Part shown: positions 31,651-64,000 of the stretch, one piece after another | How positions within the stretch are numbered: position 1 is the first letter of the stretch | Layout: every line of letters starts with the position of its first letter | Assembly (NCBI RefSeq): GCF_000027125.1 | Contig: NC_017626.1 | Source of the DNA: Escherichia coli 042 | Lineage (GTDB): Bacteria; Pseudomonadota; Gammaproteobacteria; Enterobacterales; Enterobacteriaceae | Length of the DNA stretch: 64,000 nucleotides | Direction: 5' to 3' (one strand) | Made by a program: the position numbers and the translations under genes | Notes under the pieces: generated by a model | What the model was told of the DNA's origin: nothing | What the model saw: only the letters and a program-made list of their open reading frames with translations | Databases searched by the model: none

Positions 31651-31660
31651 TATATGAATT

Positions 31661-31682: not shown

Positions 31683-31792
31683 AATTTCTTTTATCATATT
31701 GATATTAATATAATTTATTTGGTTTGATTAAAAATGTACCCTCAATTATACCCGCAGTCCCTTTTGATATCGAAAGGGAATCACACTCGGGA

Positions 31793-33516: not shown

Positions 33517-33562
33517 CTTAAGTTCTCTGTAACAGGTGGTTATAAAGGGGAGATATCCGGTG

Positions 33563-33940
33563 TTATACGGTGGTTGCGGGCGCTGCCGGTGTCGGATAAA
33601 CAGCCAGATAAACGTAACCACAGGAGCCGAGGGTGTCGGCTTCGCAGGTCAGCCCTTTCGCATACAGTGTCACGGTATGCTGATGGCGGGGATTCAGTTC
33701 ACCACTGGTGAGCATGAGCTCCAGTTGTTTCATCAGCAGCGGAAAGGCCTGGTCCAGGTGGTATGCATCTGCATCGCTGAACCGGCCTCTGATACCGGCG
33801 CGGTCGGCAAGGTAATGCAACCGGTTACCCTTCTGCACCAGACGTGCCCCGAAACAGGGCGTCACGGTGCAGGGCAGTCCCCACCAGAGGCGGTCGTGAT
33901 TGTCGTCGGGAGGCGTTGTCCCGGGGAGTGTGTCTGACAC
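33563..33940 (-). CDS. cbeA: CbeA/YeeU-family antitoxin
   Basis: 125 aa, MSDTLPGTTPPDDNHDRLWWGLPCTVTPCFGARLVQKGNRLHYLADRAG...; directly upstream of cbtA. Confidence 0.85.
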   Translation of the reverse strand: MSDTLPGTTPPDDNHDRLWWGLPCTVTPCFGARLVQKGNRLHYLADRAGIRGRFSDADAYHLDQAFPLLMKQLELMLTSGELNPRHQHTVTLYAKGLTCEADTLGSCGYVYLAVYPTPAAPATTV

Positions 33941-37355: not shown

Positions 37356-39878
37356 TTATGCCGGTAACTCCGGGGGTAATGCTTCTTCCAGCCGGTTAAC
37401 CATATTGCCGAGATGGGATGCATCATATTCCATGACGGGGCGTTGCCTGATGATACTGACCACCAGTGGTTTGATTAACATATTGGTCGCGGCCCGTTGT
37501 TGTATACCGGCGGCGAAAATGATCTCCAGAGCATTCTGATCGATAACACGGGCCAGATTCGCGTTCAGATTTTCTGTTTCATGTCCGGTCAGCAGGAAAC
37601 TGCCGGCAAGCCATGTCACCTGTTCCTGAATCATTGCCAGAATTTTGACGCGATCTTCTTCAACCAGCGCTCCGGCAATTTTTCCTGATACAGCGGAGGC
37701 AATCATTCCCCCCAGAACACCGCCAACCACACGCCCTGTCAGTGCACCAAATGGTCCCAGTGGACTGAACAGTATCCCGCCCGCCACTGACCCGACAGCT
37801 CCACCTGCCACACCGGAAGATGCCACGGCAAGATTCCTGATGAACTGCGTACCGGAGATCCGTCCCCGCAACATTTTGATCATGTCAGGGCCGGTTGTGA
37901 CAGCTACCAGTGCCAGAGATGTCACCAGCGTACCCTTCATCACTTTGTTCAGGGCACTGATATTTCCTGTACCGGTCCCCTTCTGAAGAGCCAGTCGGAC
38001 AGTCGGACTGGCCGTCGAAAAATCAATGTGCTTCAGCATACCCTGAACAACACTGAGCCGGTGAAGTTGCTGGGTTGTGACGTAGACAGCCAGTGTGCGG
38101 GTGAAGGTTTTTCCTGCCTGGACAGCAGCTGTCTGCAGGGCAGCATCGCGATCGCCGGTGCTGAGCCAGAAGACCGATGCCGTCAGGGCAAAACTGATCC
38201 CTCCGGCCGCCAGACTGACAACCGAACCCTCGGCAATATCATAAGTGACCGATTCGATGGTCCCGAACCGGGTGATATTACGGGCCTGGGTATAAGTCAG
38301 ATGTCCCCGACGAATCAGCCGGGACGCTTCTGCGGGATCGGTTACACCAGGTACTTTACCTTCGCGGATCTTATTCCTCATGGTTTCAACAGCGCCGGCA
38401 TACTGATCACGGGGGACTTCCAGTTGCATGGGGCCATGATTTCCCATGTAACGATACTGTCCGTTTTGTCCGTCGAATGCCGCACCGACGCTACGGGCTG
38501 CAGTTGAACAATATTTCGTCTGGATCTCTGTTCCGCTGACCAGTCTGTCTGCTCCATTTCTGGCATTATTATCACCGAGGATCCGTGCGTTTTTCAGACG
38601 GACTCTGTCGACAATATGGTTTCCCCGTTCAGCGGCAAACCCATGTCCCTGCCCTCCGGAAGCAAACATTTTCTCATTTGTACTCCAGGTTTCCGGCAGT
38701 TTCATGAGAATCAGACCATTCGCCGTTGCATCGGAAATAAAACTGTTGTAGGGGCGTTCATAAATTTCCTGACACAGTGTTTCTGTTTCGCGACAAAGAG
38801 AGGAGCAGTACCATTCCGGATCCGGCTTATGATTTTCCGGGGCATGATGTACTTCTGTCAGCCCGCAGGAGGCACAGATACGAAGCTCATCCACGTGATG
38901 GAATGATACAAAACGGCGACCTTCTGAAAAGGGATACCAGTCACCGCCGTCCAGGCAACGATCGAGAAAATCGTCATTCGCTTCCGGTGATAAATTCAGG
39001 CGGTTCCGGAAGAGGGTTTTCAGTTCATCAGGGGTAAATGACAGGCTCTCTCTCAGCTTTTCGTTGAAACCCGCCATGTTTCTTTCATACCAGGCATTGT
39101 CCAGTAGCCAGTTTCCGTCTGCCAGTTCAAATTCCCTCAGTTCTCCCCGGGAAATCCGTTGTGAAATGAGTGTCAGCCAGATGCGCTCCGTCAGCGTTTC
39201 AGGAAGGCTGTAATCGTTTTGCAAACTGCTCAGCCATGATTTACTGTTGAGCACCGGTTGTTCTTCCAGTGTCTGGCTGATGGCACTGGTCAGTCTTTTC
39301 AGCGCCTGGATCTGGCTGGCCGCCCATAGCAGCGTCACTAATGCAGCCAGCCAGTACAACAACCCGCCCCACCACATCAGTGAGGGTGAAATATCGAACT
39401 GCAATGCGATCAATGGTGCGTATGCAGAACACGCCATAAGGAAAAAGGCAGTATAAAAACAGCAGTAATACCCGTTAATTTCCTTGCTGATATCTTCAGG
39501 TGTGAGCCCGTTCTGCTGAATGGTTCTTATCTGCACGGGAAGAGCCAGCAGACCAGCGGCGAGAGCGGTGGTCAGAATAAATTTTACAGAGTCAAAAGTA
39601 TGAGCCTCCAGTGCGATATGTTTACCATCAAGTCCCCACATGAAGCTGATGATCATTCCGGCAATCGTCAGAAATACGCCTGCCAGCCAGCGAATATGGA
39701 ATAACCGGGTTATGCGTTCAGTGATATAGCCAGCCAGTAAAGCCGGACCGAACAGACACAGCAATATGAACCCTGCCAGCGCAGACGCTGTGCTGGTTAA
39801 TGCTCTGAACAAAAGGCGAAGAATGGCAAATCCTGCGATCAGCAGAATCAGCGCGCCGACTATCTGTAACATAGTCAC
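37356..39878 (-). CDS. YeeR-like polytopic inner-membrane protein (long, 840-aa form)
   Basis: N-terminal and C-terminal clusters of hydrophobic helices with Gly-rich stretches (GGVLGGMIASAVSGKIAG). The central soluble part has a Cys cluster, CASCGLTEVHH...WYCSSLC. It sits immediately downstream of flu, as yeeR does in CP4-44. Confidence 0.7.
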   Translation of the reverse strand: MTMLQIVGALILLIAGFAILRLLFRALTSTASALAGFILLCLFGPALLAGYITERITRLFHIRWLAGVFLTIAGMIISFMWGLDGKHIALEAHTFDSVKFILTTALAAGLLALPVQIRTIQQNGLTPEDISKEINGYYCCFYTAFFLMACSAYAPLIALQFDISPSLMWWGGLLYWLAALVTLLWAASQIQALKRLTSAISQTLEEQPVLNSKSWLSSLQNDYSLPETLTERIWLTLISQRISRGELREFELADGNWLLDNAWYERNMAGFNEKLRESLSFTPDELKTLFRNRLNLSPEANDDFLDRCLDGGDWYPFSEGRRFVSFHHVDELRICASCGLTEVHHAPENHKPDPEWYCSSLCRETETLCQEIYERPYNSFISDATANGLILMKLPETWSTNEKMFASGGQGHGFAAERGNHIVDRVRLKNARILGDNNARNGADRLVSGTEIQTKYCSTAARSVGAAFDGQNGQYRYMGNHGPMQLEVPRDQYAGAVETMRNKIREGKVPGVTDPAEASRLIRRGHLTYTQARNITRFGTIESVTYDIAEGSVVSLAAGGISFALTASVFWLSTGDRDAALQTAAVQAGKTFTRTLAVYVTTQQLHRLSVVQGMLKHIDFSTASPTVRLALQKGTGTGNISALNKVMKGTLVTSLALVAVTTGPDMIKMLRGRISGTQFIRNLAVASSGVAGGAVGSVAGGILFSPLGPFGALTGRVVGGVLGGMIASAVSGKIAGALVEEDRVKILAMIQEQVTWLAGSFLLTGHETENLNANLARVIDQNALEIIFAAGIQQRAATNMLIKPLVVSIIRQRPVMEYDASHLGNMVNRLEEALPPELPA

Positions 39879-39992: not shown

Positions 39993-42900
39993 TCAGAAGG
40001 TCACATTCAGCGTGGCCTGACTGTTATAACCTTCAGCGCTGCTGCCGCTGACGCTGTGGGCATAACCGGCCTGAACGCCCAGGGTGATATTTTCCCGGAC
40101 ACGGGCTTCCAGTCCGGCCTGCAGATCCAGTGAAGTGCCATTCTGTGAGGGAGAGAACGTCATCCCGCTGCCTGCGGTGGAGGTCCCCACACGCATATCA
40201 CCCCGGGAGCTGAAGGTGCGGATAACGGAAGGCTGTACCCACCAGTTCACCGGCAGTTCACGCACACTGTGTTTTGCACTGTCACGCAGGGGGGCACGGG
40301 ATGAGGTGCCTTCACCAAAGGTCATATCGTTGTGGCTGCCCAGACGGAAACCGGCACGCACATGTTGTGCACTGCCATGCCCGAACTTCACATAACCGGC
40401 GTTGTCCTTACCGTCATCCAGCGAAAGCCCCTGCCAGGTGTACTGCAGCCGTGGCTCCAGCATCAGGTTGTCAGTAATACTGAAGGGCAGACCGGTTTCC
40501 AGTGAGCCCAGCCAGCCCCAGCCCCGTGCGCGGAAGTCGTTATTGCCCGATGACGCTTTCATACTGTGGCGGGTTCCCTGTGCCACAATGTCAGCCCACA
40601 GGCCGGAGGAGGTGTGTGTCAGGTTCATATATCCGCCCAGGCTGCCGGCATCATCCCGGACCGTGCCGGCGCGGGAGCCGTCATCATCCTTAACATCAAC
40701 GGAAGAATGGCCTGCAGCACCATACACTCCTGTCGTCAGTGACATACCGGCGACCTCTGTTCTGAGCAGGTCACCCTCCAGACGGACGAAGCCATAGCTG
40801 CCGCTGCTTTCCGGCGTGGCCCCACGGGCAATACCGCCGTTGTTATCGTGACCGAGATGGCCGCCCTGAATGCTGAGACGGACGCTGTTATTTTCACCGT
40901 TTACACCGGTCTGATGGCTGCGTGAGCCTGCCAGAATCCGGTCATAGTCCATTGCCTGTGTCAGCATGGAGGCGTACAGGGGGACTTCAGCACGATAACG
41001 TTCTTCACTGCGCAGATACCAGCTCTCATCACTGTCCCGGTTGAGGGTGTAGTTAAAGGCCCCGGCCTGCAGCATATTCCCCTGGACAAAAGCCCCTTCC
41101 TCCGTGGTGGCACCGTTAATGGCCTCAACCACCTGAATACCCTTACCGGTGGTCGCCAGCCCCGTACCACTGTTGCCGGCGTTCACCAGATTCAGGATGG
41201 TTTTTCCGGTTGCCCTGCCACCGTCAATGACCAGTCTGTCAGCATTGTTCTGCGCCATATCCGGGCGTACACGCAGGCTGATGGTGCCATTCTGCCCGTT
41301 CAGGTTTTTCACCTGCAGGGTTGCCGGTACGAACTTCCCTGTGCGGGTGGAGGTGAAATGAATCTGTCCGGCATGGCTGAGGTCATCCACCACCGACTGC
41401 ACCGTGGCGTTATCAGGGATATTCCAGGTGGCACCGGATGTCAGGGTGACATTCGTGGGGTCAATGGCACCGTTCAGCACTGTGCTGCCGGTCAGCTTCA
41501 GGGCCGTGCCGCGCTGAGCGATGACATCCGTGGTGACGGTACTGTCGTTCAGCGTCAGCGTGCCTTCATTCAGGTTGACGGTTTTCTGGGTGAGTGTGGT
41601 GTTGCTGACAGTGAGTGTGCCACTTCCTGATTTTTCCACCCTGCCGTTACCGGTAAGAGCGCCTCCCTGCAGGAGTGCATCACCTTCACGGATGGTCAGG
41701 GTATCGTTATTCACCGTTTTCCCGGAAAGGGTAAGCGTGGCACCGTTATTCAGCGTGGTGGTGCCCGCCAGCGAGCCCCCTCTGGCAGTGAACAGTCCGC
41801 CATTTACCGTGGTATCCGTGGCCGTATCACCGGCGTTCAGCGTGAATGAACTGCCTTTTTCCAGCATCAGGGCATCCGCCTGACCGCCCCCGATACGGAA
41901 TGCCGTTCCGTCGCTCCGGGTACCACTGACAGCGGCCCCGGAATCGGCCAGCAGTACACCGCCATTCCCCATGGATACGGTGGTGGCGGCACCACCGTTG
42001 CGGACATCCAGCGTTCCGCCATCATCCACACGGGTATTAGTGGCTGTGTGTCCGCTCAGCACATCCAGACGTCCGCCATTTTCCAGTACGACATTATCAG
42101 CCTTACCCGCCAGAACGGAGAATGCTCCCAGGCGGTTTGTGCCGGTGACGGTTGCAGCTGTGCTGGTAACCAGTGCACCTCCCGTGTTCTGGGTGACATC
42201 AGACGCTTTACCGCCGGCATTCACCTGCAGCTTTCCTTTCTGGTTGATGGTGGTATGCGCGGTAGTTCCTCCTTCCTTAATCACCTGCCAGCCCCCCTCG
42301 TTAATTACCGTGTTCAGCGCAAGTCCGTATTTGTGCACATACTGGTTTCCTCCCTCCAGCCGGGTGTTATGTGCCTCGCCGTGTACCGTCTGGTCACCGC
42401 CGGCGTAAATGAGGGTGTCCCGTGCCATCCCCGAAGACCAGATAACCTGCCGGCCATTTTTGTTGATGGTGGTGGATTCAGCCGTCCCTCCGACCATCTG
42501 ACCGCTGGACACATTTTCAGACTCCGGACCACCTTCTGCACCGGTGTTGACGATGGTTCCGGTTGCCTGCCCGCCATGTTTAATGGTCTGGTAGCCAGAC
42601 TGGTTAATCACCGTTCCGGATGCACTGCCGCCTGCATGTATCCATTGTTCACCACCGTTAAGGACAGTACCGTAAGCCTGCCCGCGCAGATTCTGTCCTC
42701 CACCGGCACTGATAACCGTATCCGTGGCACTGCCACCTGCCATGACATCCTGCAGACCGTTTGCGGTGACCGTGGTGTTTCTGGCAGTGCCACCCCGGGC
42801 TATCTGCTGACCGCCGGTGTTGTCATCAGAGTCCGGCCCCAGCTCAAGCCCGGTACTGACAGTCACGCCATCAGCTGTTCCGGATACAAACTGGTTGTCA

Positions 42901-43112
42901 TGGTTTACCAGTGTTCCGCCATTCACTGTTTCACCCGGGTGCACAACGATGTCAGCAGCCAGCACCGGGAGTGACGTGACTGCGGCAAGAGACAGTGCAA
43001 CCGCCACACCGCCACGTTTACCCCGTGCGCGGGCCAGTTCGGAGGCAACCACGAAAGCGCCCGTAATGTGATTCCATACCAGCCTGTAGCAGGTATTCAG
43101 ATGTCGTTTCAT
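39993..43112 (-). CDS. flu: Antigen 43 self-associating autotransporter adhesin
   Basis: ORF 39993-43118. Extended autotransporter signal peptide MKRHLNTCYRLVWNHITGAFVVASELARARGKRGG..., a repetitive G/T/N-rich beta-helix passenger, and a C-terminal beta-barrel ending ...QATLNVTF. Confidence 0.95.
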   Translation of the reverse strand: MKRHLNTCYRLVWNHITGAFVVASELARARGKRGGVAVALSLAAVTSLPVLAADIVVHPGETVNGGTLVNHDNQFVSGTADGVTVSTGLELGPDSDDNTGGQQIARGGTARNTTVTANGLQDVMAGGSATDTVISAGGGQNLRGQAYGTVLNGGEQWIHAGGSASGTVINQSGYQTIKHGGQATGTIVNTGAEGGPESENVSSGQMVGGTAESTTINKNGRQVIWSSGMARDTLIYAGGDQTVHGEAHNTRLEGGNQYVHKYGLALNTVINEGGWQVIKEGGTTAHTTINQKGKLQVNAGGKASDVTQNTGGALVTSTAATVTGTNRLGAFSVLAGKADNVVLENGGRLDVLSGHTATNTRVDDGGTLDVRNGGAATTVSMGNGGVLLADSGAAVSGTRSDGTAFRIGGGQADALMLEKGSSFTLNAGDTATDTTVNGGLFTARGGSLAGTTTLNNGATLTLSGKTVNNDTLTIREGDALLQGGALTGNGRVEKSGSGTLTVSNTTLTQKTVNLNEGTLTLNDSTVTTDVIAQRGTALKLTGSTVLNGAIDPTNVTLTSGATWNIPDNATVQSVVDDLSHAGQIHFTSTRTGKFVPATLQVKNLNGQNGTISLRVRPDMAQNNADRLVIDGGRATGKTILNLVNAGNSGTGLATTGKGIQVVEAINGATTEEGAFVQGNMLQAGAFNYTLNRDSDESWYLRSEERYRAEVPLYASMLTQAMDYDRILAGSRSHQTGVNGENNSVRLSIQGGHLGHDNNGGIARGATPESSGSYGFVRLEGDLLRTEVAGMSLTTGVYGAAGHSSVDVKDDDGSRAGTVRDDAGSLGGYMNLTHTSSGLWADIVAQGTRHSMKASSGNNDFRARGWGWLGSLETGLPFSITDNLMLEPRLQYTWQGLSLDDGKDNAGYVKFGHGSAQHVRAGFRLGSHNDMTFGEGTSSRAPLRDSAKHSVRELPVNWWVQPSVIRTFSSRGDMRVGTSTAGSGMTFSPSQNGTSLDLQAGLEARVRENITLGVQAGYAHSVSGSSAEGYNSQATLNVTF

Positions 43113-43143
43113 CAGCATTTCCTTAATCAGAGTGAGGGTGAAT

Positions 43144-48504: not shown

Positions 48505-48717
48505 ATGGAAGTTAAAACCAAAGAAGACTGGCTGTATCAGTTCCGTCGTTGTTCATCCCGGGAGACGCTGGAAAAAGTGATTTCCCACACACGTTATAAA
48601 CTTACCCTTGCGGAGCTGGAAGCCTTCAACTCTGCGGTTGATCACCGACTGGCAGAACTAACCATGAACAAACTTTACGATCGCGTTCCGGCTTCTGTCT
48701 GGAAATATGTTACCTGA
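48505..48717 (+). CDS. Hha/YmoA-family H-NS co-regulator paralogue
   Basis: 70 aa. ...[14 protein letters not shown]...[36 protein letters not shown] matches by eye the Hha signature RRC..TLERVIE...[27 protein letters not shown]. Confidence 0.85.
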   Translation: [70 protein letters not shown]

Positions 48718-52450: not shown

Positions 52451-52745
52451 AATCTTCTGTTTTTACTAGAAATCCCCTCACTCCTTCTTTCATTGCATTT
52501 TGTTGGGCCCTTCCTCCATATCTTTCCCGCTTTCCAGAAATCACGTCAATGCTGCTGAAACTTTACTCATTGTGATTTTCAATGACTGAAATCAAGAAAA
52601 TACAGTGTTTATGTTAACTGGCTGTATCAAAAGTGTTTTGTGGAATAATTTTCTGTATTTTTACATTAACAATGGTTATAAGCTTTGAATATTCATTATT
52701 TTGCGACATTCCATAGAATAAAGTCCTGATTATTTGCATTATATC

Positions 52746-52798
52746 GATCGATGTATCTGTTATATTGAGATTTTTCAGATCTTCGTCCTATAATGATC
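52746..52798 (+). promoter_or_regulatory. T6SS (tssB) sigma70 promoter with three GATC sites
   Basis: -35 TTGAGA (52765-52770), an 18-bp spacer, and a perfect -10 TATAAT (52789-52794). GATC at 52746-52749, 52778-52781 (in the spacer) and 52795-52798 (abutting the -10). AT-rich Fur-box-like stretches include tataatgatcaaaattaaa. The ATG of tssB lies about 75 nt downstream. Confidence 0.6.
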
Positions 52799-52874
52799 AA
52801 AATTAAATCAGTGCACAAGGGGAGGCATCTGCGGTGATGGAACCCCTGAGATGCAGGTTTCACAGGAGAGAGCC

Positions 52875-53372
52875 ATGAGCAGTTCGTTTCAGAATGAAAT
52901 CCCGAAAGCAAGGGTAAATCTGAAATTAGACCTACATACGGGTGGTGGGCAGAAGAAAGTGGAGCTTCCGCTCAAACTTCTGGTTGCCGGTGATTTCAGT
53001 AACGGACAGGAAGAGCGTCCACTGTCAGAGCGTGTAAAAACGGATATTAATAAAAACAATTTTAATGATGTTCTGGCAGATATCTCCCCGTCTGTACATC
53101 TGAATGTGGAGAACACGCTTGCCGGTGATGGCTCTGAAGAGAGCATCAGCCTGACTTTCCGCAATATGAACGATTTCACGCCAGAGCAGGTCGCCCGACA
53201 GATTCCCCGTCTTAAAGCCATGCTGGCCATGCGTAGCCTTCTGCGGGACCTGAAAGCCAATCTGCTGGATAACGTGACTTTCCGTAAAGAGCTGGAAAAA
53301 ATTCTGCGTGACCCGGCACTGAGTCAGACGCTGCGTGATGAACTGCGTGCACTGGTGCCGGAAAAGGCGTGA
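52875..53372 (+). CDS. tssB: TssB (VipA/ImpB) small sheath subunit
   Basis: ORF 52851-53372. The ATG at 52875 has the SD AGGAGAG. MSSSFQNEIPKARVNLKLDLHTGGGQKKVELPLKLLVAGDFS... is the canonical TssB N-terminus. Confidence 0.95.
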   Translation: MSSSFQNEIPKARVNLKLDLHTGGGQKKVELPLKLLVAGDFSNGQEERPLSERVKTDINKNNFNDVLADISPSVHLNVENTLAGDGSEESISLTFRNMNDFTPEQVARQIPRLKAMLAMRSLLRDLKANLLDNVTFRKELEKILRDPALSQTLRDELRALVPEKA

Positions 53373-53393
53373 TTTAACGGATTACGAGAGAAA

Positions 53394-54938
53394 ATGCTGA
53401 TGTCTGTACAGAAAGAAAAGAACGTTGCAGAGAGCGTGGTATCTGAAGCGCATGCCGGCGACAGCGTATATGCTTCCCTGTTTGAAAAAATTAACCTGAG
53501 TCCGGTATCTGCCCTGAGTGCACTGGATATCTGGCAGGATCCACAGGCCATGTCAGAAGCATCTGCAGATGAACGTCTGACGGCAGGGATGCAGGTGTTT
53601 ATGGAGTGTCTGGCAAAAGCCGGCACGCAGGTGGAAAAACTCGATAAAGCGCTGATTGACCATCATATTGCAGAGCTTGATTATCAGATCAGCCGTCAAC
53701 TGGATGCTGTGCTTCATCATCCGGAATTTCAGAAAGTGGAGTCGCTGTGGCGGGGCGTGAAGTCCCTGGTGGATAAAACGGACTTCCGCCGTAATGTGAA
53801 AATTGAGCTGCTGGATCTGTCCAAAGACGATCTGCGTCAGGATTTTGAGGATGCGCCGGAAATTATTCAGAGCGGCCTTTATCTGCAGACCTATGTGGCT
53901 GAGTATGACACGCCGGGTGGTGAGCCCATTGCCGCCCTGGTTTCAGCCTGGGAGTTTGATGCATCTGCACAGGACGTGGCGTTGCTGAAAAATATTTCCC
54001 GGGTGGCGGCATCTGCACATATGCCGTTTATTGGTTCAGTTGGCCCGGCGTTCTTCCAGAAAGAAACCATGGAAGAGGTGGCTGCCATCAAGGATATTGG
54101 CAACCACTTTGAGCGTGCCGAGTACATCAAGTGGAATGCTTTCCGTGAGACGGACGATGCCCGCTATATTGGCCTGGTGATGCCCCGTGTACTGGGACGC
54201 CTGCCGTATGGCCCGGATACCGTACCTGTCCGCAGCTTTAACTATGTTGAAGAGGTGAAAGGACCGGACCACCATAAATATCTCTGGACGAACGCGTCTT
54301 TTGCCTTTGCAGCCAACATGGTGCGCAGTTTTGTCACCAACGGCTGGTGTGTTCAGATCCGTGGGCCTCAGGCCGGTGGTGCGGTGCAGGATTTGCCAAT
54401 CCATTTGTATGATCTGGGAACCGGTAATCAGGTCAAAATTCCGTCAGAGGTGATGATCCCGGAAACGCGGGAGTTTGAATTCGCGAATCTGGGCTTTATT
54501 CCGCTCTCTTACTACAAGAACCGGGATTATGCCTGCTTCTTCTCTGCTAACTCCGCCCAGAAACCGGCGCTGTACGATACGCCGGATGCAACGGCGAACA
54601 GTCGTATTAATGCCCGTCTTCCCTATATCTTCCTGCTGTCCCGTATTGCGCATTACCTGAAGATCATTCAGCGGGAAAATATCGGTACCACCAAAGATCG
54701 CCGTCTGCTTGAGCTGGAGCTGAATAACTGGATCCGGGGACTGGTGACGGAGATGACCGATCCGGGTGATGAACTGCAGGCCTCGCATCCGCTGCGTGAC
54801 GGAAAAGTGGTGGTGGAAGATATCGAAGACAATCCGGGATTCTTCCGCGTGAAACTCTACGCCGTACCGCATTTCCAGGTAGAAGGTATGGACGTCAGCC
54901 TGTCACTGGTTTCGCAGATGCCGAAGGCAAAAGCGTAA
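53394..54938 (+). CDS. tssC: TssC (VipB/ImpC) large sheath subunit
   Basis: 514 aa, directly after tssB. Conserved TssC stretches include ...HPEFQKVESLWRGVKSLV... and ...PFIGSVGPAFF.... Confidence 0.95.
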   Translation: MLMSVQKEKNVAESVVSEAHAGDSVYASLFEKINLSPVSALSALDIWQDPQAMSEASADERLTAGMQVFMECLAKAGTQVEKLDKALIDHHIAELDYQISRQLDAVLHHPEFQKVESLWRGVKSLVDKTDFRRNVKIELLDLSKDDLRQDFEDAPEIIQSGLYLQTYVAEYDTPGGEPIAALVSAWEFDASAQDVALLKNISRVAASAHMPFIGSVGPAFFQKETMEEVAAIKDIGNHFERAEYIKWNAFRETDDARYIGLVMPRVLGRLPYGPDTVPVRSFNYVEEVKGPDHHKYLWTNASFAFAANMVRSFVTNGWCVQIRGPQAGGAVQDLPIHLYDLGTGNQVKIPSEVMIPETREFEFANLGFIPLSYYKNRDYACFFSANSAQKPALYDTPDATANSRINARLPYIFLLSRIAHYLKIIQRENIGTTKDRRLLELELNNWIRGLVTEMTDPGDELQASHPLRDGKVVVEDIEDNPGFFRVKLYAVPHFQVEGMDVSLSLVSQMPKAKA

Positions 54939-54953
54939 GGCAGGTGTCGGGAA

Positions 54954-56291
54954 ATGAAGATTTATCGCCCATTATGGGAAGACGGGGCTTTTCTGATGCC
55001 CCAGCAGTTTCAGCAGCAGGCTGCCTGGGATGTTCATCTGGCAGACAGCGTTGCCAGAATGGGGCTGGCGCATCCATGGGGCGTGGTGGCTGCAGAGTTT
55101 GATGACTCTCTGTTACCGCTTTCACGGTTGAATGCCACCCGTCTGATTGTTCGTTTCCCGGACGGAACGCTTATTGATACGGAACGCGCGGATAATCTGC
55201 CTCCGGTCTGTGATTTATCGACGGTTTCTGATCGTTCCCTGGTGGATATTGTGCTGGCACTACCGTTACTGAATGCTAACGGTGGCAACCTTGATAATGG
55301 CAGTGAGAGCGAGCGTCCGCGTCGCTGGAAATCAGAAAGGGTGAATGTGCAGGAGCTGGCCGGGCATGAGCAAAGCGAAGTGGCGGTATTGCGGCATAAC
55401 CTGACTCTGCGCATGGCTCATCAGGAAAATGCTGCCTGGCTGACCTGTCCCGTTACCCGTCTTGTTCGTGATGCACAGGGACAGTGGTGCAGGGACCCGC
55501 GTTTTATTCCCCCTCTGCTGACGCTGTCTGCCAGTCCTTCGCTGATGACTGAACTTGCGGAGTTGCTTCATCACCTGCAGGCGCGTCGCCAGCGACTGAT
55601 GTCCATGCGTCGGGAGAACAATGCCCGTCTTGCGGATTTTGCTGTGGCGGACGTGTCGTTGTTCTGGTTGCTGAATGCCCTGAACAGTGCGGAGCCTGTT
55701 CTGAAAGAGTTGCTTGACATGCCTTACCGCCACCCGGAACTGTTGTACAGGGAGCTTGCCCGGCTGGCAGGCTCCCTGCTCACATTCTCGCTTGAGCATA
55801 ATGTGGATGCGGTTCCGGCATACCATCATGAAACACCTGAAAATGTTTTCCCACCATTGCTTTCTTTGCTGAACCGGCTGCTGGAGGCAAGCCTGCCTTC
55901 CCGTGTGGTTTTCATTGAACTGAAACAAAAGGGTGTGATGTGGGAGGGGGCATTACATGATGCGCGTCTGCGCGAAGGGGCTGATTTCTGGCTTTCAGTG
56001 CGCTCTTCCATGCCCGGGCATGAACTGCAGACGAAGTTTCCGCAGCTATGCAAAGCCGGGAGCCCCGATGATGTGTCTGAGGTGGTGAATGTGGCGCTGA
56101 GCGGGGTCATTATCCGTCCGGTTACGCATGTACCGGCGGCCATTCCGCTCCGGCTGGAAAACCAGTATTTCGCGCTGGATTTAAGTACGGATGCGGCCCG
56201 GGCGATGCTGGACGCGGGGCGTTGTACTTTCTACACCCCGGCATCGCTGGGAGATGTGAAACTGGAACTTTTTGCGGTGCTGCGGACATGA
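54954..56291 (+). CDS. tssK: TssK (ImpJ/VasE) baseplate subunit
   Basis: 445 aa, MKIYRPLWEDGAFLMPQQFQQQAAWDVH..., the typical TssK N-terminus. Confidence 0.92.
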   Translation: MKIYRPLWEDGAFLMPQQFQQQAAWDVHLADSVARMGLAHPWGVVAAEFDDSLLPLSRLNATRLIVRFPDGTLIDTERADNLPPVCDLSTVSDRSLVDIVLALPLLNANGGNLDNGSESERPRRWKSERVNVQELAGHEQSEVAVLRHNLTLRMAHQENAAWLTCPVTRLVRDAQGQWCRDPRFIPPLLTLSASPSLMTELAELLHHLQARRQRLMSMRRENNARLADFAVADVSLFWLLNALNSAEPVLKELLDMPYRHPELLYRELARLAGSLLTFSLEHNVDAVPAYHHETPENVFPPLLSLLNRLLEASLPSRVVFIELKQKGVMWEGALHDARLREGADFWLSVRSSMPGHELQTKFPQLCKAGSPDDVSEVVNVALSGVIIRPVTHVPAAIPLRLENQYFALDLSTDAARAMLDAGRCTFYTPASLGDVKLELFAVLRT

Positions 56292-56941
56292 ATAAACCTG
56301 TTATCTCCCGGGCTGAACAGATTTTTTATCCCGGCTGGCTGATGGTCAGCCAGCTGCGCAGCGGGCAACCGGTTGAGGATGGTAAGGCCCTGTATCGCCG
56401 TGCCTGTCAGCTGGTGAAACAGGCGCGTGAAGAGCTGGCCGAAGCAGGATTCAGTCAGAAAAGCAGTGACATCATGTTGTATGCCTTCTGCGCCCTGCTG
56501 GACGAGAGTGTACTGAACCGCGAAAAAACAGACGATGGCTGGCGCACCTGGCAGCAGGACCCGCTGCAGGCTCATTTTTTTGGTACGCTCAATGCCGGTG
56601 AAGAGCTCTGGGAGCGTATTCGTGAACAACTGAAATTACCAGCGCCGGATGTGGCGGTACTGACATGCCTCTGCCGTACGCTTCAGCTCGGTTTTACCGG
56701 TCAGTACCGGTCGCAGGATGATGAGCGTCGCGAAGATGTAATACGCGCACTGACAGCGCGTGTTCCTGCATTTACTTTCGCACAGGATGCGCCGGTGGTG
56801 GTGCGTGCACCGGGTTACCGTGCTGGCAGAACGATGTACTGGTTGTCATGGGGGGCGGGTATTGTGACGCTGGCTGGTCTCTGGTGTGTGCTTTCTTCTG
56901 TGCTTGCAGACCAGGTGGCACGGCTTACCGGGCAGGGATAA
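56288..56941 (+). CDS. tssL: TssL (DotU/ImpK) membrane-complex subunit
   Basis: The ATG at 56288 overlaps the tssK stop (ATGA). 217 aa with a DotU-type cytoplasmic domain plus one C-terminal TM segment (WLSWGAGIVTLAGLWCVLSSVL). Confidence 0.9.
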   Translation: MNKPVISRAEQIFYPGWLMVSQLRSGQPVEDGKALYRRACQLVKQAREELAEAGFSQKSSDIMLYAFCALLDESVLNREKTDDGWRTWQQDPLQAHFFGTLNAGEELWERIREQLKLPAPDVAVLTCLCRTLQLGFTGQYRSQDDERREDVIRALTARVPAFTFAQDAPVVVRAPGYRAGRTMYWLSWGAGIVTLAGLWCVLSSVLADQVARLTGQG

Positions 56942-56943
56942 CC

Positions 56944-58674
56944 ATGCACGTACGTTCCCGTCTCTGGCTGACAATACTGAGTCTGTTCCTGACACTGTGG
57001 CTGATTTCGGGATTCCTGCCGCTGTCTGCAGTAAACCAGATAATACTGACCCTGGTTTCAGTTGTGGCGGCGGGGCTTGTGCTGTGGTACCAGTGGCGTT
57101 GTCTGTCTTCCCGTCGTGATATCCCGGAGAAGGCCGGCGATGACGGTCTGCCGCCTGAGTATTTTCAGGGACATGTGCTGCTTGTTGCCGGAAACTCAGA
57201 TGCGTGGTTCGAACCCGGTCAGGCATACCGGGAAACAGCATCGGGATGGTATCTTCGTGTGGATACGCCGGAGCAGATGAGAATACTGGCAGAACGGTTG
57301 TCGTACAGCCGTCCGGCCCTGTGTGGCCAGGTCGTGGTCATGCTGGGACTTTTACCGGAGCAGCATACCTCAGATGAAGCTTTCCTGTCGTGGTTGCGGA
57401 ACTGGCAGCGTGCAGTCATGCAGTGCCGGCAGTGGCTGAATACCACGCCACCGGTGCTGGTTACATTGATGGTTTCAGAGCCGTCACCACAAAACACATC
57501 CTTAAATAAGCACTCTACACACTGGTTTACACTGACACCGGACCTGCCGGGAATGCATATACGCCTGACGGAAGCCGGAGCAATTCCGGCAGAGGAATGG
57601 CTGCAGGCGTGTGATGCAGCGTCCAGGCTCCGGTGCGTCAGTGAACTGTTATGGCTGAATGCCATGTTGTCCTGGTACAACCGGGTTACTGATGCCCTGA
57701 CAGCTATTTGCCGGCAGGAGCACTTTTATTTCCGGCCGGTTGCCGTTGGATTCTGTCTGACGTCGGTTGCGGCCCGCCCCGGTAATCTCTGGCAACAACA
57801 ACTGACGTCCCTCACTGCATTGCCACCGCCTGCCGGCGTGTCATCACAGGTATTGCCGTTGCCGGATATTCTGCTGTCCGGTATTCCCCGTCATCGTGGA
57901 CTCAGTCACTGGCACAGACTTTGTCGCCAGACGGGGGCGATTGTCGGTGTTTTTCTTCTGCTGGCTATGCTGGCGTCTTTTATGAATAACCAGCGGCTGG
58001 TTCGCAGCGTGGGGGAACACCTGACGGCCTGGCACCGGATGCGCGGATATTCATCTGAATCGAAAACAACAGCACTGCAACGTCTTCAGGCTGACAGCCA
58101 GTTACTGAACGACTGGCAGCAACGTGGTGTGCCACAGCGTTACGGACTGGGATTGTATCAGGGAATGTGGCTGATACCGCCGGTTGAGCGTGCGACTGGT
58201 GAGTGGGTTGCACCACGGCCTCCCCGTCCGGTGATACAGAAAGTTACTCAGACGCCGAAAACGGTTCGCCTTAACAGCCTGGCACTGTTTGATGCCGGTA
58301 AATGGACGCTGAAGCCGGGCGCCACAAAATGGCTGGTGAATGCCCTGGTGGATATTAAGGCAAAAGCAGGCTGGCTGATTGTGGTCAGTGGTCACACGGA
58401 TAATACCGGTGACCCGCTGCGCAACCAGGCCTTGTCCCTGAAGCGTGCAGAGGCCGTTCGCGACTGGATGCGGGATACCGGCGATATTCCCCAAAGCTGT
58501 TTTGCCGTACAGGGATACGGTGAAAGCCGCCCTGTGGCCCCGAATGACACGGCGGAAGGCCGTGCGCGTAACCGCCGTGTTGAAATCAGTCTGGTACCGC
58601 AGGCCGATGCCTGTCGTCTGCCGGACGTTTCCCCTGCGCCGGAAGAGGGCGCATCAGAAAACATAACGGAGTAA
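56944..58674 (+). CDS. tagL: TagL (SciZ-like) peptidoglycan-anchoring accessory protein
   Basis: The ATG at 56944 lies 2 nt after the tssL stop. 576 aa with three predicted TM helices and a C-terminal OmpA/MotB peptidoglycan-binding motif, GHTDNTGDPLRNQALSLKRAEAVRDW...NRRVEI. Confidence 0.85.
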   Translation: MHVRSRLWLTILSLFLTLWLISGFLPLSAVNQIILTLVSVVAAGLVLWYQWRCLSSRRDIPEKAGDDGLPPEYFQGHVLLVAGNSDAWFEPGQAYRETASGWYLRVDTPEQMRILAERLSYSRPALCGQVVVMLGLLPEQHTSDEAFLSWLRNWQRAVMQCRQWLNTTPPVLVTLMVSEPSPQNTSLNKHSTHWFTLTPDLPGMHIRLTEAGAIPAEEWLQACDAASRLRCVSELLWLNAMLSWYNRVTDALTAICRQEHFYFRPVAVGFCLTSVAARPGNLWQQQLTSLTALPPPAGVSSQVLPLPDILLSGIPRHRGLSHWHRLCRQTGAIVGVFLLLAMLASFMNNQRLVRSVGEHLTAWHRMRGYSSESKTTALQRLQADSQLLNDWQQRGVPQRYGLGLYQGMWLIPPVERATGEWVAPRPPRPVIQKVTQTPKTVRLNSLALFDAGKWTLKPGATKWLVNALVDIKAKAGWLIVVSGHTDNTGDPLRNQALSLKRAEAVRDWMRDTGDIPQSCFAVQGYGESRPVAPNDTAEGRARNRRVEISLVPQADACRLPDVSPAPEEGASENITE

Positions 58675-58679
58675 TTTTT

Positions 58680-59171
58680 ATGGCAATTCCAGTTTATCTG
58701 TGGCTGAAAGATGATGGCGGTGCAGATATCAAAGGGTCCGTGGATGTTCAGGACCGTGAGGGCAGCATTGAGGTGGTGGCTCAGGAGCACTGCCTCTACA
58801 TCCCGACGGATAACAATACCGGTAAGCTGACCGGTACCCGTATTCACACGCCGTTTCTGTTTACCAAGGAAATTGATTCTTCCAGCCCGTACCTTTACAA
58901 GGCCGTGACCACCGGGCAGACCCTGAAGTCTGCTGAGTTTAAGTGGTACAAAATCAATGATGCCGGTCAGGAGGTGGAGTATTTCAATACGAAGCTTGAG
59001 AACGTGAAGGTGGTGAAGGTTAACCCGGTCATGCACGACATCAAGAATCCCGCTTACGAGAAGCATAACCACCTTGAGCAGGTGGAACTGCGCTACGAGA
59101 AAATCACCTGGACTTACAAGGACGGCAACATCATTCATTCCGACGCATGGAGTGAGCGTACCACCGCGTAA
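58680..59171 (+). CDS. hcp: Hcp (TssD) inner tube protein
   Basis: 163 aa, MAIPVYLWLKDDGGADIKGSVDVQDREGSIEVV... Confidence 0.95.
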   Translation: MAIPVYLWLKDDGGADIKGSVDVQDREGSIEVVAQEHCLYIPTDNNTGKLTGTRIHTPFLFTKEIDSSSPYLYKAVTTGQTLKSAEFKWYKINDAGQEVEYFNTKLENVKVVKVNPVMHDIKNPAYEKHNHLEQVELRYEKITWTYKDGNIIHSDAWSERTTA

Positions 59172-59179
59172 TTCTGCCG

Positions 59180-59216
59180 GACGGACAGGGCATCCTGTCC
59201 GTCATTTTTATTTTTT
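59180..59216 (+). terminator. Strong intrinsic terminator after hcp
   Basis: gacggacagg-gcat-cctgtccgtc (10-bp perfect stem) followed by atttttatttttt. Confidence 0.7.
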
Positions 59217-59330
59217 CTTCAGCATCTGTTGGCGGGTGCTGAAGAAAGAATTCTCAATCCTGAACACAGACCTGATGCGCCTGGGTTACGGCGAAGGGCG
59301 GTAGCGTGCCTGACGGTCTCCTGACAGTGA

Positions 59331-61997
59331 GTGAATAACATGGAAAATTCGGCAGCCCTGTTACGTCGTCTTAATCATTACTGTGCCCGTGCACTGGAAG
59401 GCGCAGCCTCCCTTTGCCAGACCCGGGCCCATGCGGAAATCACCCCGGAGCACTGGTTACTGAAACTGCTGGAGCAGGGGGAAGGAGACCTTACCGTGCT
59501 GGGCAGGCGTTATGACTGGGATATGGACGCGATATGGCAGTCGCTGCTCGGCTGGCTGGATAACCAGCCCCGTAGCGTACGCAGTCGCCCGCAGCTTGCG
59601 CAGTCCCTGAATGCTCTGCTGAAACAGGCCTGGATGGTGGCCTCATTACAGGGAGAAGAACATATCCGCAGCGTGCATCTGCTGGGTGCCCTGACGGAAA
59701 ATCCGCACCTGGTTCGCTGTGACGGGCTGTGGCCTCTGCTGACACTGAGTCAGAGCCAGTTGCAGCGTCTGTCCCCGCTGCTGGATGCGCAGTCTGATGA
59801 GTGTCCGGAGACGTTACAGGATGCAGAGCCTGTGCTGCCTCAGGGAGACAGTGTGACCTTTATCGGGCGCCCTGTCGGTGCGGATACGGCAGGTATACCG
59901 TCAGGTGACCTGCCGCCGGTGTTACAGGGTGCGCTGGATAAATTCACCCGGGACATCACGGCCAGCGCGAGAGAGGGGAAAATTGACCCGGTATCGGGAC
60001 GCGATACGGAAATCCGTCAGATGGTGGATATTCTCTCCCGCCGTCGCAAGAATAACCCGATTCTGGTGGGGGACCCCGGTGTGGGGAAAACGGCTCTGGT
60101 GGAAGGGCTCGCCCTGCGTATTGTGGAAGGTAACGTACCAGAATCTCTCAGACCCGTCACCCTGCGCACCCTTGACCTCGGCCTGCTGCAGGCCGGTGCC
60201 GGCGTGAAAGGTGAATTTGAACAGCGTCTGAAAAACGTGATTGATGCCGTGCAGCTGTCACCGGCTCCTGTACTGCTGTTTATAGATGAAGCCCATACCC
60301 TTATCGGTGCCGGTAATCAGGCCGGTGGCGCGGATGCGGCCAACCTGCTGAAGCCTGCGCTGGCGCGAGGCGAACTGCGCACCATTGCTGCCACCACCTG
60401 GTCTGAGTACAAACAATACCTGGAACGTGACGCGGCTCTGGAGCGGCGTTTTCAGATGGTCAAAGTGGACGAGCCGGATGATGAGACGGCCTGTCTGATG
60501 CTGCGCTCCCTGAAATCCCGTTATGCGGAACATCATAACGTGCATATCACCGATGAGGCAGTACGTGCTGCCGTCACACTCTCGCGCCGTTATCTGACAG
60601 AACGTCAGTTACCGGACAAGGCCGTTGACCTGCTTGATACTGCTGCTGCCCGTGTGCGGATGAGCCTCGACACGGTGCCGGAACAGCTGACCCGAATCCG
60701 TTCACAGCTCGCTTCCCTCGGTATGGAAAAACAGGCACTGCTGGAAGATATTGCCGTTGGTCATCAGAATCACGGCGAACGCCTGTCTGCCATTGAGCAG
60801 GAAGAGAACGTGCTGATGACAGCACGTGATGACCTGGAGCAGCAGTACGCCCGTGAGTGCGAACTCACCGGTGAGTTACTTGAAAGCCGCAGCGATATTT
60901 CCCGCCAGAGTGAGACACATCACCTGCAGCAGGCACTGCACGACATTCAGCAGAATCAGCCCCTGCTCAGTGTGGATGTTGACGTACGCACCGTTGCCGG
61001 TGTGGTCGCGGACTGGACCGGAGTGCCGTTATCCTCACTGATGAAGGATGAACAGACGGAACTGCTGCATCTGGAAAAGGATATCGGCAGACGGGTGGTC
61101 GGACAGGACGTGGCACTGGAATCCATTGCACAGCGTCTGCGTGCGGCGAAAACGGGTCTGACATCCGGTAACGGCCCCCAGGAGGTGTTCCTGCTGGTCG
61201 GCCCCAGTGGTGTGGGAAAAACCGAAACGGCACTGGCGCTGGCAGATGTGATGTACGGCGGCGAAAAATCACTGATTACCATCAATCTGTCGGAATATCA
61301 GGAGCCCCATACGGTTTCCCAGCTTAAGGGTTCACCGCCCGGGTACGTGGGATACGGTCAGGGGGGTATTCTGACGGAAGCTGTACGTAAGCGCCCTTAC
61401 AGCGTGGTGCTGCTGGATGAAGTGGAAAAGGCCCACCGGGATGTGCTGAATCTGTTCTACCAGGTGTTTGACCGGGGCTTTATGCGCGACGGTGAGGGGC
61501 GTGAAATTGACTTCCGTAATACGGTCATTCTGATGACCTCCAATCTGGGCAGTGACCTTCTGATGCAGCAACTGAGCGAAAAGCCGGAGACAACGGAATC
61601 GGAGCTGCATGAGCTTATCCGTCCACTGCTGCGCGACCACTTCCAGCCAGCACTGCTTGCCCGTTTCCAGACCGTGATTTACCGTCCGCTGACACCGTCT
61701 GCTATGCGCACCATTGTGGAGATGAAGCTTGCACAGGTCTGCGAACGCCTGCACTGCCATTATGGGCTGAGCACATCGGTTGATGAACGTGTGTACGATG
61801 CCCTGACATCCGCCTGCCTGCTGCCGGATACGGGCGCCCGGAATGTGGAGAGTCTGCTGAACCAGCAACTGCTGCCGGTACTGAGCCGGCAGTTGCTGAG
61901 CCATATGGCCGCGAAGCAGAAACCGCAGGCGCTGGCTCTGGCATGGAGTGACGAAGACGGTATGGTGATTGAGCTGCGGCAGGAATGCGCGTTATGA
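59331..61997 (+). CDS. clpV: ClpV (TssH) AAA+ sheath-recycling ATPase
   Basis: 888 aa from the GTG at 59331 (in-frame ATG at 59340). Two AAA+ modules with Walker A motifs GDPGVGKT and GPSGVGKT, plus a Clp-N-like N-domain. Confidence 0.95.
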
Positions 61998-62560
61998 CCG
62001 GCTATGGCAGAAATCAGGACGCTGGCGCAGGTAAAAATCAAAGGGAAGAAGGCTCATTGCGGTTACTGACGCCGGGAGAGATTGCGCTGGCGAGGCTGGT
62101 ATTCAGGTTGACAATCCCTTATGAAAAGGTCTGGATCCACCATGACAGTTTTCTGCCTTTTGGTCTTCAGAATAAGCAAACTGCCATGCCCCCCGATGGT
62201 AAGATTTATTTCCGTGAGCACTATCGGGATGATTATTCACTCAGCGTTCCCTTTTATCAGCATATGTTTATTCATGAAATGGCGCATGTCTGGCAGCGTG
62301 AAAAGGGAATGAATGTCATCGGTCGGGGGATGTTCAGTTGGGCGGTGAATTACCGTTATGTTCTGGACGGGCGTCTGTTAAGCGAATATCCCATGGAGCA
62401 GCAGGCACAAATTATTGCTGATCATTTTACTTTGCAGGCTGAAGGATACGGGACATGGTGTGATATGAGAAGGGACGGTGATATCACACTGGACGGAAAT
62501 ATGTCTGAGTATGTTATTCGCAGCCTGTATACCAGCACGTTGCGGGGGTTCCCATGGTAA
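61994..62560 (+). CDS. Uncharacterised HExxH (zinc-metallopeptidase-motif) protein, T6SS-linked
   Basis: The ATG at 61994 overlaps the clpV stop (ATGA); an alternative ATG is at 61985. 188 aa with no signal peptide. Single HExxH motif in ...FYQHMFIHEMAHVWQREKG.... Confidence 0.75.
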   Translation: MTGYGRNQDAGAGKNQREEGSLRLLTPGEIALARLVFRLTIPYEKVWIHHDSFLPFGLQNKQTAMPPDGKIYFREHYRDDYSLSVPFYQHMFIHEMAHVWQREKGMNVIGRGMFSWAVNYRYVLDGRLLSEYPMEQQAQIIADHFTLQAEGYGTWCDMRRDGDITLDGNMSEYVIRSLYTSTLRGFPW

Positions 62561-63096
62561 AAATAAGAGCCTTTCGTTATCGTTCTGCTTTACTGCTCTG
62601 TCTGACGTTACTGACAGGATGCCCCGGACGCGGGGATTATTATCGGTTTGATGAAACAGTAACGGTCAGCACAAGAGGCGACAATGTGTGTTTCAGTGTC
62701 CCGGAGCCAGAGGACTACCAGCCAGTCAGCGTTTCCATCGCTCCACGGGGAACCCGATTCAGGGAGCGGCAAATTACATCTGAACCCTCGCTTCGTATCG
62801 TGAACGGCCAGCTGTGCATTCCGCCTTCATTCTGTCTTTTTCCTGATAAAGGCCAGTTCATTGTCAGGTCTGTTCTGCACTCTGAGCGCGATAAGGACAC
62901 ACCGCGCATCATGGTTGCCGGCATAGAGATTGCCGACGGGTGTATTTTCGATATCCCGCTTAATGACATGGAGGTCGTGAGGCCATACGGTGAGCTGAAA
63001 AGCAGTAATGTTCAGACTGACCAGAGCGAACGTCATGGTCCCTGCAAATACCCTTTCAGAGCTGTTCGTGGAGTGATAAATCATGAATCTCACTGA
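62554..63096 (+). CDS. Lipoprotein, T6SS-linked (candidate immunity protein)
   Basis: The ATG at 62554 overlaps the previous stop (ATGGTAA). 180 aa. Signal peptide plus lipobox, MVKIRAFRYRSALLLCLTLLTG|C. Confidence 0.75.
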   Translation: MVKIRAFRYRSALLLCLTLLTGCPGRGDYYRFDETVTVSTRGDNVCFSVPEPEDYQPVSVSIAPRGTRFRERQITSEPSLRIVNGQLCIPPSFCLFPDKGQFIVRSVLHSERDKDTPRIMVAGIEIADGCIFDIPLNDMEVVRPYGELKSSNVQTDQSERHGPCKYPFRAVRGVINHESH

Positions 63097-64000
63097 CTCC
63101 CTGCAAAATGTTTTATCCGGGGTGGGAACCCTGAACCGCTACAGACTGGATATACCTTCCTGCCCGTCATCGCTGGATGTTGAAGATTTCAGCGGAACTG
63201 AAGGCATAAGTAAGATTTACCGGTATGACATCATTTTTACCAGTACGGACAGGTATCCTGATGCTGCCTGGTTCCTGCGTAAATCCGCAACCCTGATAAT
63301 GGGAACCGGATTACTGGAAAGCCTGACTGAACAGAAAAAAGTGCACGGTGTTATTACTGATTTCAGACGTATTTCTGGCTCTGAGGACCAGGCACAATAC
63401 CGGATCACACTTAAACCTTTCATTTCCCTGCTGGATAAACAGTTCCGTACACACCGTTTTTTCGTTAATAAATCAGTGCCTGAGGTGGTGGAGCAAATCC
63501 TGACGGAACACGGGCTGAAAGGCTGGGAGTATGAGTTCAGCCTCAAAAGGACATATCCGAAGCGCGAACAGATTAACCAGTATCAGGAAAGCGATCTGAG
63601 ATTTATCCAGCGCCTGCTGGCAGAAGTGGGCATTTTTTACTTCTTTACGTTGCACCCGGATGCGCAGACAGAGGTGATCCACTTCGGTGACGTCCAGGCG
63701 GCGTTGATATTTGATAAAACACTGCCCGTTAACAGCCCGTCCGGTATGAGTGACAGTGGCACAGACTCAGTATGGGCATTGAATGTGGAGCACCGGGTGG
63801 TGGAAAGCCGTGTTATCACGAACGACTATAACCACCGCGAGGCCCAGAACATACTGATGTCCGTACCGGCGGACATGACCCGTGGAGAAGGTTACGACAC
63901 CAGTTATGGCGAGGTTTATCATTACCGGCCACGCCATACAGAAAGGGGCGATAAAATTGACCCTGCGCCGGAGACGGCTAACTTCTGGGCCCGGCTCGAT
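63083..64000 (+). CDS. vgrG: VgrG (TssI) spike protein, N-terminal 306 aa (runs off window end)
   Basis: Not in the ORF track because no stop falls in the window. Manual translation from the ATG at 63083 gives MNLTDSLQNVLSGVGTLNRYRLDIPSCPSSLDVEDFSGTEGISKIYRYDIIF...QYQESDLRFIQRLLAEVGIFYFF..., a gp27-like VgrG signature. Open to base 64000. Confidence 0.9.
   Translation, partial: MNLTDSLQNVLSGVGTLNRYRLDIPSCPSSLDVEDFSGTEGISKIYRYDIIFTSTDRYPDAAWFLRKSATLIMGTGLLESLTEQKKVHGVITDFRRISGSEDQAQYRITLKPFISLLDKQFRTHRFFVNKSVPEVVEQILTEHGLKGWEYEFSLKRTYPKREQINQYQESDLRFIQRLLAEVGIFYFFTLHPDAQTEVIHFGDVQAALIFDKTLPVNSPSGMSDSGTDSVWALNVEHRVVESRVITNDYNHREAQNILMSVPADMTRGEGYDTSYGEVYHYRPRHTERGDKIDPAPETANFWARLD

Follow-up and report, generated by a model that had tools for sequence, protein, structure and literature searches.

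Which type VI secretion system (T6SS) is encoded at the end of this 64,000-nt stretch of Escherichia coli DNA (contig NC_017626.1; the whole stretch is hereafter called the window), and which effectors does it carry? The cluster occupied positions 52875–64000 on the plus strand and was cut by the window end. With high confidence, we assign the region to the promoter-proximal half of a Sci-1 (T6SS-1) cluster of the enteroaggregative E. coli (EAEC) type, a contractile machine used against competing bacteria, located on a tRNA-Phe (pheU-side) genomic island adjoining cadC. The system is already known and is nothing new in kind, being among the best-characterised T6SSs. Two genes between clpV and vgrG, here called X and Y, most likely encode a second effector–immunity pair of a known family, namely a periplasm-acting zinc metallopeptidase (VgrG2b-C-ter/Tpe1) and a lipoprotein immunity protein.

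Gene order, protein identity and regulatory sequences

The region was composed of ten closely packed genes without internal stops, in the order tssB-tssC-tssK-tssL-tagL-hcp-clpV-X-Y-vgrG (Table 1). Gene families were assigned with the curated cut-offs of Pfam and NCBIfam, and every named gene scored above the cut-off of the family for which it was named, TagL solely through its OmpA domain. At the tssK/tssL junction (GACATGAAT), the ATG of tssL overlapped the TGA of tssK (ATGA), and at the tssL/tagL junction (GATAACCATG), stop and start codons were separated by a 2-nt gap (TAA-CC-ATG). This gene order and both junctions had been quoted in an earlier interpretation made from the letters of the window (the sequence-only reading), and they proved exact to the base in the list of open reading frames (ORFs) and in the sequence itself. 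An alternative GTG start of clpV at 59331 would give a protein of 888 aa.

Table 1. Positions of the T6SS genes, regulatory sequences and island edge in the window.
Feature	Positions	Strand	Length	Basis or remark
tRNA-Phe 3'-end remnant	31662–31683	-	22 nt	cadC-side island edge; found by reading the sequence
Psci1 promoter	52725–52807	+		layout matches Brunet 2011
tssB (sciH), contractile sheath small subunit	52875–53372	+	165 aa	PF05591, TIGR03358; start as in the Prokaryotic Genome Annotation Pipeline (PGAP) annotation of matching genomes
tssC, contractile sheath large subunit	53394–54938	+	514 aa	PF05943 and PF18945; TIGR03355, 665 bits
tssK, baseplate subunit	54954–56291	+	445 aa	TIGR03353; PDB 5M30
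tssL, short form, C-tail-anchored membrane-complex subunit	56288–56941	+	217 aa	NF038239 'TssL short form'; PDB 3U66
tagL (sciZ), inner-membrane peptidoglycan anchor	56944–58674	+	576 aa	OmpA domain PF00691; PDB 5M38
hcp (tssD), inner tube protein	58680–59171	+	163 aa	TIGR03344; PDB 4HKH
Hairpin and T-tract, terminator-like	59180–59213	+		directly 3' of hcp; 10-bp stem with 7 GC pairs; putative function
ops1 element (RfaH recruitment site)	59297–59308	+		hcp–clpV intergenic region; GGCGGTAGCGTG
clpV (tssH), sheath-recycling AAA+ ATPase	59340–61997	+	885 aa	TIGR03345, 1095 bits; PDB 4HH5
X (EC042_4531 by position), putative effector, VgrG2b-C-ter/Tpe1-family zinc-metallopeptidase-like	61994–62560	+	188 aa	
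Y (EC042_4532 by position), lipoprotein, putative periplasmic immunity protein	62554–63096	+	180 aa	PF24295 DUF7480, NF045617
vgrG1 (tssI), 5' part	63083–64000	+	first 305 codons	no stop, cut by window end; TIGR03361, TIGR01646, VgrG N-terminal domains; PDB 6SJL

The encoded proteins were compared with the Protein Data Bank (PDB) sequences of EAEC Sci-1 proteins and with published locus tags. TssK was identical to EAEC TssK (PDB code 5M30) at 444 of 445 residues, and residues 438–576 of TagL matched the peptidoglycan-binding domain in PDB code 5M38 at all 139 positions. Hcp was the EAEC Hcp1 protein (PDB code 4HKH) with the exception of two positions, which are Trp in the crystallised chain. 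Matches at the level of near-identity were obtained for residues 1–183 of TssL (PDB code 3U66; 411 bits), for the N-domain of ClpV with EAEC ClpV1-Nt (PDB code 4HH5; 345 bits over 159 residues) and for residues 1–305 of VgrG with EAEC VgrG1 (PDB code 6SJL; 692 bits). The proteins were thus ~99–100% identical to the solved EAEC Sci-1 structures, in support of the sci-1 (T6SS-1) identity that had been proposed. In the literature, sci-1 of EAEC is assigned to the T6SS-1 sub-family, and its published tags are EC042_4524 (sciH/tssB), 4525 (tssC1), 4527 (tssL), 4528 (tagL) and 4530 (clpV1); for these genes the tag range EC042_452x–454x, which the sequence-only reading had given, was correct.

The peptidoglycan anchor was carried by a separate TagL protein, as the sequence-only reading had stated. 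TssL contained one hydrophobic segment (residues 188–208), and TagL contained three (residues ~7–27, 31–51, and 328–350), in agreement with the published topologies. The OmpA-like domain was located at residues 480–576 of the long tagL ORF, beside the short-form TssL. Anchoring of the membrane complex to peptidoglycan by an OmpA-like domain is likewise found in 'evolved' or 'specialised' TssL systems, such as A. tumefaciens ImpK, and in the TagN, TagP, and TagW anchors. The window differed from all of these in that the OmpA-like domain resided on a separate TagL with three transmembrane segments, while TssL was of the short form.

The Psci1 promoter was located within a 500-bp AT-richer spacer 5' of tssB and was the best promoter-like match of the region (11/12). 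It was composed of a -35 hexamer, TTGAGA (52765–52770), an 18-nt spacer and a -10 hexamer, TATAAT (52789–52794). The fur1 box (52789–52807; 13/19) overlapped the -10 hexamer and included the GATC-I site, and a fur2-like box (52725–52743; 11/19) was located 5' of the -35 hexamer. Three GATC sites spanned 53 nt: GATC-III (52746–52749) inside ATCGAT (BspDI), GATC-II (52778–52781) inside TCAGA (Hpy188I), and GATC-I (52795–52798) inside TGATCA (BclI), within fur1. The published Psci1 promoter has three GATC sites over 53 nt, for which BspDI, Hpy188I, and BclI sites were used, a fur1 box of 13/19 over the -10 hexamer and a fur2 box of 11/19 5' of the -35 hexamer (Brunet 2011). Fur represses this promoter and shields GATC-I; at low iron, Dam methylates GATC-I, the affinity of Fur falls and the ON state is stabilised (Brunet 2011; bioRxiv 10.1101/2025.02.11.637775).

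Furthermore, the hairpin 3' of hcp was the best terminator-like match of the region, and the ops1 element was the single exact match to the consensus in the whole window. An ops1 element of the same position and sequence has been reported in EAEC sci1, where RfaH is needed for transcription of clpV and the downstream genes (bioRxiv 10.1101/2025.02.08.637259). The succession of hairpin and ops1 fits a design of attenuation and RfaH read-through. The 3' stem arm of the hairpin contained one of the two single-nucleotide polymorphisms (SNPs) relative to the genome BR1220, at position 59194 (C in the window, T in BR1220).

When the window was compared with the Sci-1 cluster of EAEC 042/17-2 (EC042_4524–4545, the model of the Cascales laboratory), the gene order, essentially identical proteins, the Fur/Dam promoter, ops1, a separate TagL with a short TssL and, judged by the cadC flank and the tRNA-Phe remnant, the pheU-side island position were all shared. 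No difference of substance was found; one private SNP, at 52761, lay upstream of the -35 hexamer. The Sci-1 label is secure for the window, with the Fur/Dam promoter and ops1 intact, and its value is mainly for annotation. Since the promoter, ops1 and the Sci-1 genes were all intact, the window strain probably has an iron-regulated antibacterial T6SS.

The steps of the mechanism proposed here were drawn from published work on essentially identical proteins and would apply to the window strain by extension. TssB and TssC would form a contractile sheath around the Hcp tube, with VgrG1 at the tip. TssK would be part of the baseplate, which would dock on the TssJLM membrane complex. TssL, anchored in the inner membrane by its C-terminal tail, would bind TagL, and the periplasmic OmpA-like domain of TagL would tether the machine to peptidoglycan. 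The contracted sheath would be recycled by ClpV. Transcription would start from the sigma-70 promoter under Fur repression, Dam methylation of GATC-I in fur1 would lock the promoter ON, and read-through beyond hcp would require RfaH at ops1.

The gene pair between clpV and vgrG

X gave no match in Pfam (E up to 10) or in NCBIfam and was identified only through a phmmer search of the PDB and a fold search. The match was to the effector domain at the C terminus of VgrG2b from P. aeruginosa (PDB code 6H56), with a phmmer E value of 8e-20 and with similarity of fold. X contained an HExxH motif (IHEMAHVWQ), in which residues His94, Glu95, and His98 were invariant in 30 homologues. These homologues were from Yersinia, Enterobacter, Citrobacter, Erwinia, Serratia, Klebsiella, Salmonella, and others, and most were mis-named 'type IV secretion protein Rhs'. 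In P. aeruginosa, PA0261 neutralises the C-terminal domain of VgrG2b, a zinc metallopeptidase with antibacterial action in the periplasm; Tpe1-Tpi1 of A. baylyi is another member of this family (Wood 2019). Many Enterobacteriaceae encode a free 'cargo' form with a gene for a lipoprotein immunity protein directly after it, such as SARI_02727/02726 (Wood 2019).

The start codon of Y overlapped the stop codon of X. Y contained a lipobox, LLTGC, at residues 19–23 and matched DUF7480 and the NCBIfam family named 'putative T6SS immunity periplasmic lipoprotein' (NF045617). The order clpV-X-Y-vgrG was also found in Erwinia billingiae and Yersinia, and Y always came after X in Erwinia and Yersinia. 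X differed from VgrG2b/PA0261 of P. aeruginosa and Tpe1-Tpi1 of A. baylyi in being a free cargo form of 188 aa that is not fused to VgrG. In addition, Y was a lipoprotein, in contrast to the immunity proteins of P. aeruginosa and A. baylyi, which have a signal peptide or transmembrane segments; the lipoprotein form is a trait of Enterobacteriaceae (Wood 2019). The fold of X was established here; its toxicity and secretion are inferred. X–Y would act as an effector–immunity pair besides the Tle1/Tli1 pair, which is expected just 3' of vgrG.

X and Y might instead be conserved accessory or structural parts of the T6SS, such as a cell-wall or lipoprotein-processing factor for assembly. Between genera (E. 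coli, Erwinia, and Yersinia), X was 62–68% identical, Y 43–50%, and ClpV 70%. X was therefore conserved at about the level of ClpV, a degree of stability rarely expected of a toxin, and this conservation speaks for an accessory part. The fixed position of the pair, between clpV and vgrG in all three of these groups, is in line with that proposal, as is the fact that neither X nor Y was named as an effector in the EAEC literature searched. However, X was clearly homologous to a toxin domain that has been shown to act against bacteria in the periplasm, and Y was a small envelope-targeted ORF like those of the cognate immunity family and is so named by NCBI. Y also diverged faster than X, and an extra diverged copy of Y after a truncated X in Yersinia was typical of immunity arrays. 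An accessory or structural role is accordingly unlikely.

Besides the stability of X, two points weighed against a role of X–Y as a second toxin and its immunity protein: no experiment on EC042_4531/4532 was found in the literature searched, and killing of E. coli K-12 by Sci-1 in the laboratory is accounted for by Tle1. Nor did the literature searched contain a study of the X–Y family in Sci-1. On balance, we favour the view that Sci-1, which is usually treated as a system with one effector (Tle1), carries in X–Y a second, unstudied pair with outer-membrane lipoprotein immunity, which in Enterobacterales is as conserved as the core components. The family itself is known, and its presence in Enterobacteriaceae is already predicted in general terms. 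The naming of X and Y is a gain for annotation, and if the assignment is true, Sci-1 may deliver a second toxin.

In the Yersinia assembly GCA_902170405.1, the intact X–Y pair was followed by a tandem partial duplication (7034–8611 of the locus). Its three parts were a C-terminal fragment of ClpV, a shortened copy of X and another DUF7480 lipoprotein that had diverged, with identities to the resident proteins of 98%, 93% and 51%, respectively. The arrangement resembles an array of orphan immunity genes that arose by recombination.

Completeness of the cluster and comparison with other genomes

The DNA was compared with the genomes 55989, BR1220, and UPEC69 and, for the 12-kb segment 52000–64000, in a survey of 5426 complete E. 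coli genomes. Several complete genomes, among them EAEC 55989 and BR1220, matched this segment at 100.0% identity; two intergenic SNPs separated it from BR1220, and four SNPs from UPEC69 (99.97–100% identity for these two genomes). At least 80% of the segment was present in 67 of the 5426 genomes, and partial matches, mostly of 60–90% identity, were present in 2487.

Seven of the 13 core genes were located in the window: tssB, tssC, tssD (hcp), tssH (clpV), tssK, tssL, and the 5' part of tssI (vgrG). No tssA, tssE, tssF, tssG, tssJ, tssM, PAAR, or tle gene was found elsewhere in the window, either in the ORF lists or in the annotation of matching genomes, which bears out the earlier statement that these genes and the cargo linked to vgrG were absent from it. 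The same statement had placed them downstream. This was the case in BR1220 and UPEC69, the two closest genomes read, in which the remaining core genes were intact and the cluster continued in the order vgrG (841 aa)-tle1-tli1-tli1-PAAR-hyp-tssM-tssA-hyp-tssF-tssG-tssJ-tssE (hyp, hypothetical gene); for the window strain, the downstream position is a prediction from these relatives. Since both genomes continue with the remaining genes, the cluster of the window strain is very probably complete.

Some observations weighed against a complete cluster of the EAEC Sci-1 type. One of the seven core genes in the window was cut by its end, and other genomes served as the basis for extrapolating completeness to the window strain. 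Over the whole window, none of the complete genomes in the collection was identical, and the best ones differed by 2–4 SNPs in 12 kb. In the Psci1 region, a private C-to-T change was present at 52761, 4 nt 5' of the -35 hexamer, where BR1220 and UPEC69 have C. A 60-nt promoter segment was carried by 43 complete E. coli genomes, all 43 of which differed from the window by one base (59/60). The 52761 change touched neither of the Fur boxes, none of the GATC sites and neither hexamer, so that it probably has no effect or stems from a sequencing error.

A truncated or decayed cluster, with downstream core genes missing or interrupted and no functional T6SS, was also considered, as the window ends within vgrG with the downstream part unseen. 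Islands of this kind are rich in insertion sequences and pseudogenes; in UPEC69, the second tli1 copy was frameshifted and the same island contained several broken T6SS fragments. Against this stood the intact state of all nine genes complete in the window, the lack of any SNP relative to BR1220 in the coding region, the intact promoter and ops1, and the full gene set in BR1220 and UPEC69, both of the near-identical genomes examined. Loss of function by truncation or decay is thus very improbable. There is next to no chance that the cluster belongs to another T6SS subtype of E. coli (T6SS-2 or T6SS-3/aai) and merely shares the gene order, even with related clusters as common as the partial matches indicate. 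The proteins were ~99–100% identical to the Sci-1 reference proteins, which refutes both subtypes, and in UPEC69 the genes of aai/T6SS-3 were ordered differently and occupied a locus of their own.

The island of UPEC69 contained, 3' of sci-1, the aai/sci-2 (T6SS-3) cluster, group II introns, broken T6SS fragments (tssB, ImpA, and VasL), and pic. In the literature, EAEC 042 carries both clusters, with sciH as EC042_4524 and aaiA as EC042_4562, ~40 kb apart. The UPEC69 layout, with sci-1 followed by aai/sci-2 and pic, resembled this account of EAEC 042.

The island and its chromosomal setting

The left 31.6 kb of the window was core chromosome and included proP, pmrAB, adiC-adiY-adiA, mel, fumB, dcu, lysU, dtpC, and cadA-cadB-cadC, with the end of cadC at 31044. 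The ORFs checked in this flank, including cadCBA and adiA-adiY-adiC, were all full length. The cad and adi loci were therefore intact, as had been noted earlier. Their presence beside a T6SS island had also been regarded as a noteworthy strain context; this part of the claim did not stand, because the island was located beside cadC in UPEC69, HSP60, and OZ547038 as well, and cad/adi is the normal and unremarkable chromosomal flank of pheU.

The cadC-side edge of the island was marked by the tRNA-Phe remnant, TGGTGCCGGACTCGGAATCGAA, which is the reverse complement of the tRNA-Phe 3' end with one C missing. Counted from this remnant, the T6SS cluster was located ~21 kb inside the island. A scan of the window for tRNA genes was negative, and a 23-nt pattern of the pheU 3' end gave no match in the window with up to three mismatches; the pattern missed the remnant because of the 1-nt deletion. 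From the lack of a tRNA gene in the window and the orientation, an intact pheU should be located past the distal end of the island. The placement on a pheU island was supported by the neighbouring cadC and by the remnant of tRNA-Phe, with the refinement that the window is without an intact pheU. According to the UPEC69 annotation, an integrase pseudogene remnant was located between cadC and the island, at ~31310–31463 in window coordinates.

From position 31653 on, the window was 99.9% identical to the island of BR1220 (BLAST). Over 25–30 kb, including Ag43, cbtA/cbeA, and the T6SS, the islands of 55989, BR1220, and O104:H4 strains showed DNA identities of 99.9–100%. The island of BR1220 was located beside glcA and gspL-yghD, another chromosomal site, which we take to be the pheV side by the K-12 map, whereas the island of the window adjoined cadC. 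The occurrence of the same island (99.9%) at two chromosomal sites suggests a transfer from one to the other, by movement or recombination; the sites are probably the two tRNA-Phe genes, which are identical.

The island cargo 5' of the T6SS comprised a cbtA/cbeA module, Ag43, an hha gene, and small phage-like genes. Ag43 (39993–43118, minus strand) is a phase-variable gene controlled by Dam and OxyR, and hha is a modulator of H-NS silencing; the cbtA/cbeA toxin–antitoxin pair was located at 33139–33939 (minus strand) and the hha-like gene at ~48505–48717 (plus strand). An 840-aa ORF adjoining Ag43 (37356–39878, minus strand), annotated as 'membrane protein' in UPEC69, was intact there and in the window; in BR1220, a 1-bp indel had shifted its reading frame.

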